Source of the DNA: Escherichia coli | Lineage (GTDB): Bacteria > Pseudomonadota > Gammaproteobacteria > Enterobacterales > Enterobacteriaceae | Length of the DNA stretch: 7,641 nucleotides | NCBI RefSeq assembly: GCF_003334255.1 | Contig: NZ_QOWU01000095.1 | Reading direction: 5' to 3' (one strand) | In this document: in pieces, positions 1 through 5,225 of the stretch | How the letters are laid out: each line of letters opens with the position of its first letter | Position numbering within the stretch: the stretch's first letter is position 1 | Made by a program: the position numbers and the translations under genes | Notes under the pieces: generated by a model | What the model was told of the DNA's origin: nothing | The model's database searches: none | Seen by the model: only the letters and a program-made list of their open reading frames with translations

Positions 1-157
1 TTACAATCCTCTTTTTTCGGTACATATTTCCAGTCACCAGACCACTACTTCCCCTGAAAGTCCGTAACGCCTTTTTTTTCACGTAGCGATATCGCCATGC
101 CACTGTTTTTGCTTGCCCCGCCGTTTCATGCCCTTCCTGATAATTAACCTCGCTCAT
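1..157 (-). CDS. hypothetical small basic protein, N-terminal 52 codons only (continues past left edge)
   Basis: My own reverse-strand translation from ATG at 157-155 gives MSEVNYQEGHETAGQAKTVAWRYRYVKKKALRTFRGSSGLVTGNMYRKKRIV... It stays open to position 1. The start overlaps the stop of the upstream 58-aa ORF as ATGA (translational coupling). It is not in the ORF track because it is partial. I recognise no homology. Confidence 0.4.
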   Translation of the reverse strand, partial: MSEVNYQEGHETAGQAKTVAWRYRYVKKKALRTFRGSSGLVTGNMYRKKRIV

Positions 158-598: not shown

Positions 599-955
599 TT
601 ATTCAGTTCTGGATTTTGTCGCCCTGCGTATCCGCGCTTTCGCGTTACGCTCAATCTGAATTAGCTTTTCTATATTTTTTCGCCTTTCCCGCTCCTCCTG
701 ACGCAAGAGCCTTACATCATCTGCCAGTCTGGTTTCTCTTTTCGCCACAGAGAGCATCCAGTCAAATGGCTCCACAACTGCACCGCAGATTTTACAGCGG
801 ACCTGACGCTCTTTTTCGTCAACCCGGACAGAGGCGTGATGACAATATGGTCTTTCCGATGGCTCATAAAGAAAATTAACCTGATTACGAGGGTCATCCT
901 CTTTTACCGGAAATAAAACGATATTGCTTAACTCATCCTCTGGTTTTATTTCCAT
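599..955 (-). CDS. hypothetical protein with C-H-H...CxxC zinc-ribbon-like motif and basic coiled-coil tail (118 aa)
   Basis: This is track ORF 599..1012. I prefer the ATG at 955 (MEIKPEDEL...), which is preceded by AAGGAGAGGAGC. The motif is YCHH-x14-CKIC, followed by the heptad-like, Arg/Glu-rich segment RLADDVRLLRQEERERRKNIEKLIQIERNAKARIRR. An alternative in-frame GTG at 1012 (137 aa) lies 11 nt after a conserved AGGAGG and cannot be excluded. Confidence 0.6.
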   Translation of the reverse strand: MEIKPEDELSNIVLFPVKEDDPRNQVNFLYEPSERPYCHHASVRVDEKERQVRCKICGAVVEPFDWMLSVAKRETRLADDVRLLRQEERERRKNIEKLIQIERNAKARIRRATKSRTE

Positions 956-1070
956 GCTCCTCTCCTTTGATGCGAATGCCAGCGGTAATTGAAGCCTGAT
1001 AGCTAATTTCACTCACAGTACCGCCTCCTGAAAATTACCCTGATAGAAAGCCAGTACACGCTGCATAGCT

Positions 1071-1442
1071 TCACTCTTCACTCTTCCGGCACTCGCGACA
1101 GATTATGTTTAGGCGACTGTCGTAGCGACGTATTTCTCCGTCAGGTAACGACCAGATAAGGTCCGGATCAACCACAACCGGTTTCTTCAGCTTTGCCCTC
1201 GATAATTTTTTGCGGGCATTTTGCCAGTCTTTACGAGCCTGTTCAGACGGGAATAACCCGTAGCCAGAATTGTATACATCGCCACTGGCAACCAGCTCTC
1301 TGGCCAGAACGCTCATCAGATATCTTGTTGCCCCAGTTTTAGCTTCCAGTTGTCGTAACGTCTCGCGCCCACTCTGGCGTACGAGTTCAAGAACCTGTCC
1401 TTTAATTTTTTCCCGCTCTTCTTGTGTAAAAACTTTTGCCAC
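1071..1442 (-). CDS. hypothetical protein, possible N-terminal winged-helix DNA-binding fold (123 aa)
   Basis: This is track ORF MAKVFTQEEREKIKGQVLELVRQSGRETLRQLEAKTGATRYLMSVLARELVASGDVY... It has a GTG start at 1442, 3-4 nt after AGGAGGG. It lies directly downstream of the replication gene on the same strand. The wHTH call is pattern-based only. Confidence 0.6.
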   Translation of the reverse strand: MAKVFTQEEREKIKGQVLELVRQSGRETLRQLEAKTGATRYLMSVLARELVASGDVYNSGYGLFPSEQARKDWQNARKKLSRAKLKKPVVVDPDLIWSLPDGEIRRYDSRLNIICRECRKSEE

Positions 1443-1482
1443 AAGCCCTCCTGAAAATTACCTCATGACCAGAAATTAACAC

Positions 1483-2553
1483 TTACCCCCTGAAGCCCGG
1501 CGGAATTTCGTTATCCGGTTCAGAAATATGATTCACACAACGCTGGTTGTTCGTGCCGCTTACCGGGAGCAGCCAGGGGTTTTCAAAATTCCGGTCCGGT
1601 CCAAAAAACGTCGTCGCTCGCTGAACAAATTCCGTTCCCGTTTTCCCGGTAGCCGCAAGGTATCTTGCGTAACGCCTCACGCCATCCAGCATGGCCTCTG
1701 GTGGCACCCCCTCGCGTAATCTGGCTTTCCAGGCACTGAAAGCGGATTTCTTCGGGTTTGCCCCGGCACGCAACGGGTATTCCCGCCAGACCTGTTCGAA
1801 CACATCAGGATAATCCACTCGTCCCACAGGCTGCCCGGTGTTTTCCGGGACTACCCGATCGGCTTCCCGCTGAATGGCGGAATCGGCTTCAGGCTGCTGA
1901 AGTTGGTGTGATTGCTCCTGCCTTGCGGTCATCACCTGCTGCACAGCGCCCGAATCGGCTTTCAGCGCATACGCTGAATCGGCTTCCGGTGTCGTGCCTG
2001 CGGGCTGGCCAGGAGTGACGGTCTGAACATCCCCTGCCTGGTTCGTGGCGTTTTTTACGCCATGGACCATAGTGTTTTGATCTTCTTGATCTGTATCTTT
2101 ATCTGTATCTTTATCTGTCGTGACTCGTCGTGACATGTGCGTGACATTTCGTGACTCGCCGTGACAATCGCCATTTTGTTCCCGCTTTCTTTCCCTCTCT
2201 CGCTGCGCCCTCTTGCGCTCTGCCGGAGATTTTGCGGTTTGCGAAATATTGCCGTTGTCCTCTTTCAGCACCTGGCGTTTTTCCCATCCAGTGATTAAAT
2301 CACCATCAAGTACCCGCCCCTGCATCGTCTGCAAAATTGAATCAATTACCTCTTCTGTCACGTCGAGCGCACTTGCCAAATCTTCTGTCGTGACATCAAT
2401 GTGACCTCGCGTGACATTTCGTGACGCGCTCACCAGGAGGTGGATATACACTGCCATCACTGTTGCAATTGGCTGCCCTGACACCCTGGCAATTGTTCGC
2501 CACTTAGGGTCATTTGGCATGTCATGCCATAATCTGAGCCAGGCGTTAGCCAT
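1483..2553 (-). CDS. phage replication initiation / replisome-organiser protein (O-like), 356 aa
   Basis: This is track ORF 1483..2559. I prefer the ATG at 2553 (MANAWLRLWHDMPNDPKWR...), with GAGG 5 nt upstream. It sits immediately after the cro/cII-analogue pair, as O does in lambda. The N-terminal domain is HTH-like, the linker is a low-complexity acidic/Gln stretch, and the C-terminal segment FEQVWREYPLRAGANPKKSAFSAWKARL resembles the conserved C-terminus of phage replication proteins. Iteron arrays lie inside the gene. Confidence 0.75.
   Translation of the reverse strand: MANAWLRLWHDMPNDPKWRTIARVSGQPIATVMAVYIHLLVSASRNVTRGHIDVTTEDLASALDVTEEVIDSILQTMQGRVLDGDLITGWEKRQVLKEDNGNISQTAKSPAERKRAQRERERKREQNGDCHGESRNVTHMSRRVTTDKDTDKDTDQEDQNTMVHGVKNATNQAGDVQTVTPGQPAGTTPEADSAYALKADSGAVQQVMTARQEQSHQLQQPEADSAIQREADRVVPENTGQPVGRVDYPDVFEQVWREYPLRAGANPKKSAFSAWKARLREGVPPEAMLDGVRRYARYLAATGKTGTEFVQRATTFFGPDRNFENPWLLPVSGTNNQRCVNHISEPDNEIPPGFRG
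2079..2124. repeat. AT-rich tandem repeat with two GATC sites (candidate DNA-unwinding element)
   Basis: The sequence is GATCTTCTT-GATCTGTATCTTT-ATCTGTATCTTT-ATCTGTCGTGAC, a 12-bp unit repeated about 3 times. Positions 2079-2118 are about 70% A+T, and GATC occurs at 2079 and 2088. GATCTGTATCTTT resembles the oriC 13-mer GATCTnTTnTTTT. The repeat abuts iteron cluster 1. Confidence 0.55.
2119..2165. repeat. iteron cluster 1: five CGTGAC repeats at 10-11 bp spacing (putative ori)
   Basis: CGTGAC starts at 2119, 2129, 2140, 2150 and 2160, so the spacings are 10, 11, 10 and 10 bp. The cluster lies inside the replication gene, as ori-lambda lies inside O. Confidence 0.65.
2357..2425. repeat. iteron cluster 2: (C/T)GTGAC x4 at 10-11 bp spacing plus one inverted copy
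   Basis: CGTGAC is at 2389, TGTGAC at 2400, and CGTGAC at 2410 and 2420. An inverted GTCACG is at 2357-2362. The 17-mer GCGTGACATTTCGTGAC is identical at 2139-2155 and 2409-2425. Confidence 0.6.
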
Positions 2554-2624
2554 ACTCACCTCTTCTGATACCGAATCTTTTTACTCACGAGTTGCCGGAA
2601 GCGATTCGATATGGCTATTGTCAG

Positions 2625-3367: not shown

Positions 3368-4006
3368 ATGAGCAAGCAAACTATATCTGAACGCATAACC
3401 CAACGTATGCATGCGCTAAACCTGAAAGGCAAAGACCTTGTCAATGGCACTGGCGCATCAAAAGGCTCCGTAAGTCAATGGATGAACGGTGGAGGAGCGC
3501 CGTCCTCGCGTTACATAAGTTCACTGGCAAAAATATTGAAAGTAAACGAAAATTGGCTTCTTAATGGAGGAGAGTTAAATACAGGTGATTCGCTTGATCT
3601 ATCTTTACCGCCGATAAAAACGGTTCCGCTACTATCACTTCAGCAGGCAGCAAGCTGGAGTGATTATATGAAAAATTCCTCAATAACCTCTTGTGTGCAG
3701 CTTGTCGGAGAAATCCCGGTCAATACCTTTGCAGTTGTTCTAGAGAGTGACAGTATGTCAACATCTGGTGGGGGAGTTTCCATCCCAAATGGTTCAACAG
3801 TTTTTGTTGATCCCGATCGAACCGTACAACCAGGAAATATTGTCCTTGCCTTACCCAAAGGGACCACAACACCTGTCATTCGTAAACTGGAGATAGAAGG
3901 GCCGGATATTCTTTTAGTCCCCACGAATCCTCGCTACCCTTCAATTATGCTGGATGATCTATCTTGCATATTGGGCGTATGCTTTAAAATTCAACAAGAT
4001 ATTTAA
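3368..4006 (+). CDS. CI/LexA-like prophage repressor: N-terminal XRE-type HTH + C-terminal S24 peptidase domain, 212 aa
   Basis: This is the track ORF. The HTH is ISERITQRMHALNLKGKDLVNGTGASKGSVSQWMNG. The C-terminal half aligns by eye with lambda CI: FAVVLESDSM is similar to FWLEVEGNSM (Ser129), and PVIRKL is similar to FTFKKL (Lys173). VFVDPD and PTNPRYPSI are similar to LVDPE and PLNPQYPMI. There is no SD before the ATG. Confidence 0.9.
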   Translation: MSKQTISERITQRMHALNLKGKDLVNGTGASKGSVSQWMNGGGAPSSRYISSLAKILKVNENWLLNGGELNTGDSLDLSLPPIKTVPLLSLQQAASWSDYMKNSSITSCVQLVGEIPVNTFAVVLESDSMSTSGGGVSIPNGSTVFVDPDRTVQPGNIVLALPKGTTTPVIRKLEIEGPDILLVPTNPRYPSIMLDDLSCILGVCFKIQQDI

Positions 4007-5172: not shown

Positions 5173-5225
5173 TTTCTGGTGACGTTTGGCGGTATCAGTT
5201 TTACTCCGTGACTGCTCTGCCGCCC
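5173..5225 (+). ncRNA. dicF: DicF small regulatory RNA (53 nt; antisense regulator of ftsZ and other mRNAs)
   Basis: TTTCTGGTGACGTTTGGCGGTATCAGTTTTACTCCGTGACTGCTCTGCCGCCC matches, as far as I can recall, the K-12 DicF sequence base for base. It has the correct context, between ydfC and dicB, and is followed by TTTTT. Confidence 0.9.

Follow-up and report, generated by a model that had tools for sequence, protein, structure and literature searches.

Genes coupled by overlapping stop and start codons (ATGA or GTGA), with the SD of the second gene inside the ORF of the first, are common in phage early operons, and A/U-rich leaders enhance translation. The modular theory of Susskind and Botstein places 'linkers', short conserved sequences, at the edges of exchangeable lambdoid modules with variable genes around them. 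In T4-type phages, PeSL cassettes bring repeated short expression signals to small non-essential ORFs of a hyperplastic region; PeSLs are units of a promoter and a stem-loop terminator, they are present in many copies, and their recombination and mini-circles have been demonstrated (Arbiol et al. 2010, PMC2839356). Homologous exchange in conserved blocks is a known route to lambdoid mosaics, whose traces have been described together with the relaxed recombination of Rad52-like enzymes (De Paepe et al. 2014, PMC3945230).

Here we describe a 16-nt repeat, GGTAATTTTCAGGAGG, at the two ends of the prophage gene lygF. Like a linker, it is a short conserved sequence at the edges of an exchangeable module with variable genes around it; unlike a linker, it belongs to lygF only, is absent from other modules, and yielded no recombinants between its copies. 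The resemblance to PeSLs lies in the repetition of short expression signals around a small ORF, but lygF has two RBS copies without promoter or stem-loop, and no recombination products were found. A PeSL-type cassette was rejected, as positions 400-1700 contain neither a sigma-70 promoter nor a stem-loop terminator of the kind required (fold z ~0). The conserved end blocks, divergent middle and variable neighbours of lygF recall the homologous recombination traces of De Paepe et al. (2014); in contrast to these, the relevant blocks are ~30-120 nt of lygF and the 16-mer is merely their outer edge. We consider it likely that the 16-mers are translation-initiation regions at the two ends of a lygF module and that their identity reflects history, not shared regulation.

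The window, that is, the whole stretch of 7,641 nt of Escherichia coli DNA that we analysed, belongs to an Escherichia prophage of the Rac-like lambdoid type and covers its immunity and early region. Across 2.6 kb it is 99.7% identical to phages vB_EcoS-640R1 (640R1) and 813R8. The early-right operon runs on the minus strand and comprises a Cro/DicC-like gene, a YdaT/cII-like gene, a ydaU-like gene, lygF, a zinc-ribbon-like gene, a DUF7167 gene and small ORFs (Table 1). The ydaU-like gene has a conserved C-terminal end (...EIPPGFRG*) that always stands ahead of the exact 5' copy of the 16-mer. Its interior carries iteron-like GTCACG repeats at ~10-nt spacing and a tandem GATAAAGATACA x2 (2085-2165 and 2387-2425), which probably constitute the prophage origin of replication. 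Farther downstream on the minus strand, at ~503-540, a GC-rich hairpin (GCCGCCC-GAAA-GGGCGGT) separates an upstream CAGGAGG from ATG 505 of the DUF7167 gene; the hairpin may split the RBS and draw the SD near the start, or may be a processing or stability element.

Table 1. Positions of the repeat copies and of the genes and elements discussed, in window coordinates
Feature	Position	Strand	Description
5' copy of the 16-mer	1447..1462	minus	non-coding lygF leader: U-rich stretch and SD AGGAGG
3' copy of the 16-mer	1024..1039	minus	natively lygF codons G-N-F-Q-E(+G) and SD of the next gene; from alignment with 640R1 and PhiR42_1
13/16 near-match	133..148	minus	coding (E-V-N-Y-Q-E-G), near the N-terminus of the Ea22-like ORF from ATG 157
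Ea22-like ORF	1-157	minus	start ATG 157; ATGA overlap with the preceding stop (157-154)
Zinc-ribbon-like gene, 118 aa	599..955	minus	ATG 955 with its own SD AAGGAG; PGAP annotates 357 nt
27-codon ORF	933..1016	minus	fused Ea22-like remnant: N-terminal MSEISYQA and C-terminal AGIRIKGE
lygF (DUF977) without the duplication	1013..1442	minus	140 aa, GTG 1442 to TGA 1015-1013
7-bp tandem duplication	1085-1072	minus	AAGAGTG/AAGAGTG; from alignment with 640R1 and PhiR42_1
ydaU-like replication (replisome-organiser, O-like) gene	1483..2559	minus	contains internal iterons
cI-like repressor	3368-4006	plus	
DicF sRNA	5174-5225	plus	opposite the lygF operon, downstream of the cI-like gene; Rfam, full-length, 76.7 bits, E = 4e-16

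A search of the window confirmed the two exact minus-strand copies reported in the earlier note. No dinucleotide shuffle of the window (0/200) contained at least three matches at up to three mismatches, and an analytic estimate from window size and composition gives 0.007 expected exact same-strand 16-nt repeats in 7.6 kb. Iteron arrays aside, the 16-mer is the longest exact dispersed direct repeat of the window. The repeat is genuine, and chance is excluded. Its edges are sharp: identity between the copies stops at the 16-mer, and local alignment of the 40-nt flanks detected no similarity on either side (p = 0.75 and 0.98). The 16-mer has no dyad symmetry, and no inverted copy is present in the window at up to three mismatches. 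Both copies end in SD AGGAGG, preceded by the 9-nt part GGTAATTTT; the SD lies 4 nt from GTG 1442 and 7 nt from GTG 1016, at both copies within 4-9 nt of a start codon. The near-match lies in Ea22-like N-terminal coding sequence and is not an RBS. Compared with its homologue in phage 689R5, this Ea22-like ORF has an apparent frameshift in an A-run near 85-78, and PGAP treats its E. coli homologue as a frameshifted pseudogene.

The earlier note placed each copy just behind a stop codon, in a short gap. For the 3' copy this is literally so in the window, but only through the 7-bp duplication; in intact relatives the same nucleotides are coding. lygF starts at GTG 1442, as annotated in 640R1 and by PGAP, and an intact homologue matches Pfam DUF977 from end to end (E = 2.9e-29). 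The duplication shifts the frame and cuts lygF to 123 aa (ORF 1071-1442, stop at 1073-1071), so that the 3' copy looks intergenic while being natively coding. Read in the native frame, the copy is GGT AAT TTT CAG GAG G, or G N F Q E, from the intact C-terminus ...FYQGNFQEAVL* (AMQRVLAFYQGNFQEAVL*). The extra 7 nt are missing from every one of the best full-length matches obtained with 5,426 complete E. coli genomes; the frameshift may be a private mutation of this sequence or possibly an assembly error. DUF977 is a small family (104 representatives at 50% identity), conserved as far as ...C.ECR.S..MQRVLAFY(Q/R)G, with tails that differ in distant members. A scan of genome contigs for DUF977 loci gave close Escherichia and Shigella relatives only, and literature searches found no functional study of lygF, DUF977 or ydaW.

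The IMG/VR scan returned at least 141 exact occurrences of the 16-mer (120 loci). Among the matches listed, 88 of 141 have the lygF leader context (...TCATGA-16mer-RCTTGTGGCAAAAG, where RCTTGTGGCAAAAG is the lygF start), 50 of 141 have the lygF 3'-end context (...TTYTATCRG-16mer-N7-GTGA), and 3 of 141 lie in unrelated contexts. Fuzzy searching added two contexts only, Ea22-like N-terminal coding sequence and the tail of a DUF4406 gene, GTTATTTTYCAGGAGG-N6/7-GTGA, where V-I-F is part of the DUF4406 domain. With 138 of the 141 listed occurrences at lygF ends and only two fuzzy additions, the motif is a property of lygF ends and no general linker. Across 217 related loci (1.53 Mb), the motif was found at the homologous junctions of relatives and was nearly restricted to the two lygF ends; the 16-mer is among just two 16-mers ending in an SD-like hexamer that repeat within a locus with unrelated flanks.

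The only other such repeat, ATTCGCATCAAAGGAG, is related to AAAGGAGAKTGAYRTG, which forms a second recurrent junction in phage 689R5 (L002; 3895-3912, 5055-5071 and 5497-5513). There, Ea22-like genes end ..KGE*/KGD* on AAAGGAGAKTGAYRTG, their last codons furnish the SD of the next gene, and the neighbouring ..KGE* AAAGGAGAGTGAYRTG junctions are built alike.

Four gene families stand directly before lygF: the ydaU-like replication (replisome-organiser) gene in class A, the window type; a DnaC/IstB-like loader in class B; DUF1627 in class C; and a lambda-P-like gene in class D. The lygF leaders form one family, (A/G)GT(A/G)ATTT(T)CAGGAGG-RCTT-RTG, with at least six classes in which the SD and the start position (spacing to ATG/GTG) are kept and the upstream part is variable (variants AAGTAATTTCAGGAGG, AAGTGATTGCCGGAGG, GGTGATTTTTCAGGAGG, AAGTTATTTTCTCAGGAGAG and AAGTAATTTTACCGGGAGGG). 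In class B, the loader stop TAA is inside the motif (GTG AAG TAA TTT CAGGAGG). Because class B reads the core nucleotides in a different frame from the lygF tail, the core is a nucleotide-level junction and not a protein motif. One substitution and one extra T separate the window-type leader from the class B leader (AAGTAATTT-CAGGAGG), and these two changes yield the 16/16 identity with the lygF tail.

We propose that the two copies are variants of a single junction core, GTAATTT(T)CAGGAGG, which in relatives appears as the stop-codon junction between the DnaC-like gene and lygF (AAG TAA TTT CAGGAGG). This core probably became duplicated as lygF was built into the operon. The upstream copy is lygF's own leader, a U-rich stretch with a perfect SD ahead of the GTG, and each copy would have been kept by ordinary constraint, on SD function in both and on coding in the tail. 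The short 4-nt spacing between SD and GTG at lygF argues against this explanation. The proposed duplication also has to contend with flanks that share nothing between the two copies and with a class A spacer that is weakly similar to the DnaC-like 3' end (6/10 and 9-11/20 matches, p = 0.01 to 0.2); these matches hint weakly that the spacer may be a relic of the 3' end of a DnaC-like gene.

As pure chance would hardly produce a match of 8-10 nt outside the SD, convergence on an A/U-rich enhancer and a sequence-specific factor are left as further readings. In the first of these, the two sites would have independently reached an A/U-rich S1-binding enhancer and a perfect SD serving weak GTG starts, and their identity would have no genealogy. 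Consistent with convergence, a GTG follows both copies, the flanks are unrelated, and only the two changes relative to class B, the very ones that produce the identity with the tail, had to occur in the window-type leader. However, the first 9 nt of the tail are fixed by the codons G-N-F, with drift at synonymous sites, and leaders elsewhere make do with another upstream sequence. That 10 identical non-SD bases should arise twice independently is improbable as well, at ~1e-5 to 1e-4 per junction pair. We regard convergence as unlikely and retain the duplicated junction core as the preferred explanation.

At the other end of the gene, at least six different genes follow lygF, each from a GTG that overlaps the lygF TGA (GTGA). 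They include the Ea22 remnant of the window type, DUF4406, a methyltransferase, a full Ea22-like gene (MSKINYQA...) and others; annotation in relatives begins the DUF4406 and methyltransferase genes at the GTG within this overlap. Among 34 unique tails, identity is codon-like through the 16-mer, with the third base of GGT equal to the reference in 56%, and drops to 3-12% directly after it. Those lygF alleles that have diverged, SD-less tails (GGGGATGTTCGGTATT...) end TGAcgagattaa and lack the GTGA overlap, which fits selection on CAGGAGG as the SD of the downstream gene.

The downstream copy comprises the last lygF codons (Gly-Asn-Phe-Gln-Glu) and would also serve as the SD of the next gene, whose translation from the GTG within GTGA would proceed by termination-reinitiation coupling. 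Such an arrangement resembles other coupled stop/start genes in the position of the SD and in the overlap, and the neighbouring ATGA (157-154) and Ea22 ..KGE* junctions are similar. It differs from them in that the SD-bearing tail of lygF shares 16 identical nt with the leader of lygF itself. In the present window, moreover, the coupling would be broken by the frameshift 58 nt upstream, and the lygF stop lies 55 nt before GTG 1016, whereas in intact alleles it overlaps the next start. Ribosome binding at the 16-mers, the use of their SDs, the choice of GTG starts and the coupling are predicted from sequence and annotation, as is the duplication origin from the sequence comparisons.

The 16-mer might instead travel as a portable leader of downstream cassettes, but DUF4406 and methyltransferase genes in other contexts rule this out. 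Of 80 loci in a DUF4406 set collected without bias, 25 have a different gene ahead of DUF4406 and carry the leader tacgtttatttcgacAGGAGG / tacgtttatttcgacAGGAGGgttcaggcGTGA, without the first 10 nt of the motif; the L032 methyltransferase, also behind another gene, has the leader agcaaAGGAGGcaaccaGTGA, again without these 10 nt.

The earlier note argued that conservation of 10 nt upstream of the SD exceeds what ribosome binding needs and suggested a shared regulatory site, a target of a translational repressor or sRNA. Comparison of relatives does not support this. The 10 nt are variable in both copies: the tail shows no non-SD conservation above its codon background, and the leaders fall into at least six classes. 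Exact leaders pair with no fewer than 10 different tails, leaders of at least five classes stand before exact tails, and no co-variation of leader and tail was seen among relatives. In a DUF4406-selected set, the exact tail is present in 20/20 exact-leader loci vs 22/35 others by a hand count in which kinship is uncontrolled; this association is probably due to relatedness of the loci.

A protein, possibly LygF itself (winged-helix and CxxC), or an sRNA could in principle bind both 16-mers and co-regulate lygF and the downstream gene. The identity does reach past the SD over 16/16 positions, both sites are on one transcript, and the window encodes DicF. Against such an operator stand the free mixing of leader and tail variants, the ordinary conservation of the non-SD positions, and the lack of dyad symmetry and of an inverted motif copy at up to three mismatches. 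No hairpin or stable RNA structure was detected around either copy (folding z = 0.1 to 0.3). We found no promoter-like site in 400-1700, and the single terminator-like match there is on the opposite strand and distant from both copies. Rfam has no element at the 16-mer sites, DicF being its sole match and located elsewhere in the window. The only sRNA tried was DicF, as the one encoded in the window; judged by z-scores alone, with odd duplex structures set aside, its complementarity to the sites gave unremarkable duplex energies (z = 0.4 and -1.1). Together, these observations make a shared operator extremely unlikely.

The other suggestion of the earlier note, a recombination or mosaic joint between gene cassettes, holds in part. 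The copies mark both edges of the lygF module, with variable genes on either side, as a search of related prophages bore out; the motif is no general linker, however, and no recombinants were found. Measured against the modular theory, the 16-mer has the position at a module boundary, but it does not recur at the junctions of different modules and does not come with recombinant junctions. Hybrid junctions, with leader-type upstream and tail-type downstream sequence or the reverse, were absent from 120 loci. Pattern scans for the predicted lygF-deletion junction (TCATGA-16mer-CGGTACTGTGA) gave zero matches in IMG/VR and JGI metagenomes, and those for the predicted tandem-lygF junction gave zero matches in IMG/VR.

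The lygF alleles themselves are mosaics. We compared lygF of L032, L050, L059, L061 and L101 with that of L001, the 640R1 locus. In divergent alleles (50-56% aa identity), the middle of the gene is 50-65% identical at the nt level, and the first 30 nt are 70-90% identical. Over the last ~120 nt identity reaches 80-100%, irrespective of which gene comes next. The 16-mers form the outer edges of these two conserved end blocks, and the 3' end block could be an anchor for homologous exchange.

A pair of 16-mers might also target homologous or short-homology recombination, for example of the RecET or Red type, and thereby shuffle lygF and its neighbours. Both copies do lie at mosaic breakpoints, with four upstream families, at least six downstream genes and a collapse of identity after the 3' copy; the alleles combine divergent middles with conserved ends; and this region contains another shared junction in which a tail carries an SD (Ea22 ..IRIKGE*). 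Phage Rad52-like recombinases accept short, diverged homologies (PMC3945230), and shuffling in T4-type phages is driven by repeated regulatory cassettes (PMC2839356). Yet 16 bp is a short substrate, other junctions are without the motif (lygF ends account for all but 3/141 among the matches listed), and DUF4406 and methyltransferase genes dispense with its first 10 nt behind other genes. The missing deletion and tandem junctions, in the 120 loci or IMG/VR, and the missing deletion junctions in JGI metagenomes, weigh in the same direction. Selection on random recombinants would likewise leave breakpoints at gene edges. Cassette exchange at the 16-mers is therefore unlikely. That the lygF unit between them is a mobile gene cassette, with its terminal RBS repeats as the substrate of a phage recombinase for insertion, excision or swapping, we regard as highly doubtful. 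A target-site duplication was rejected as well: the repeat belongs to a coding tail and a leader, the 416-423 bp between the copies are lygF alone, and an element with terminal inverted repeats and a transposase or integrase is missing, as is any inverted 16-mer. It is unlikely that the 16-mers are a dedicated site of regulation or recombination, and two initiation regions sharing a history remain our preferred explanation.

The earlier note described the ORFs behind the 3' copy correctly: GTG 1016 opens a 27-codon ORF that runs to 933 across ATG 955, and the 118-aa ORF shares its frame with GTG 1012. The note considered the true start of the latter ambiguous. The Ea22 gene of 689R5 ends ..VAGIRIKGE* on equivalent DNA and in the frame of the GTG-1016 ORF, and other Ea22-like N-termini (MSKINYQA..) begin at the equivalent GTGA. 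Of the arrangements behind lygF in the loci that the 16-mer retrieved, the GTG-1016 remnant is the most frequent; its stop codon falls in the region where the 118-aa gene starts. In 689R5, the zinc-ribbon homologue starts at the equivalent of ATG 955 behind a different gene. GenBank annotation of 640R1 (L001, 3082-3495) and 813R8 uses the equivalent of GTG 1012 and gives 137 aa. In this version, positions 1012-956 are Ea22-derived DNA read in the wrong frame; it is probably over-extended in both phages, since PGAP and 689R5 have the 118-aa start. The PGAP annotation, the 689R5 homologue and the Ea22 remnant all point to ATG 955, which on these comparisons is the start of the downstream gene.

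The main value of these findings is for annotation. The frameshift in lygF gives rise to the apparent 'intergenic cassette', ATG 955 is the start of the downstream gene in place of the GTG 1012 annotated in 640R1, and the GTG-1016 ORF is a gene remnant. Were the 16-mer pair to mediate cassette exchange, it would give the old lambdoid 'linker' idea a concrete sequence, though the evidence argues against this; a mobile lygF cassette in a hypervariable region behind the replication genes would be a lambdoid counterpart of the T4-type PeSL cassettes. As we read it, the locus offers a clean example of a C-terminal tail that would double as the next SD, placed exactly at the mosaic joints of Rac-like prophages.
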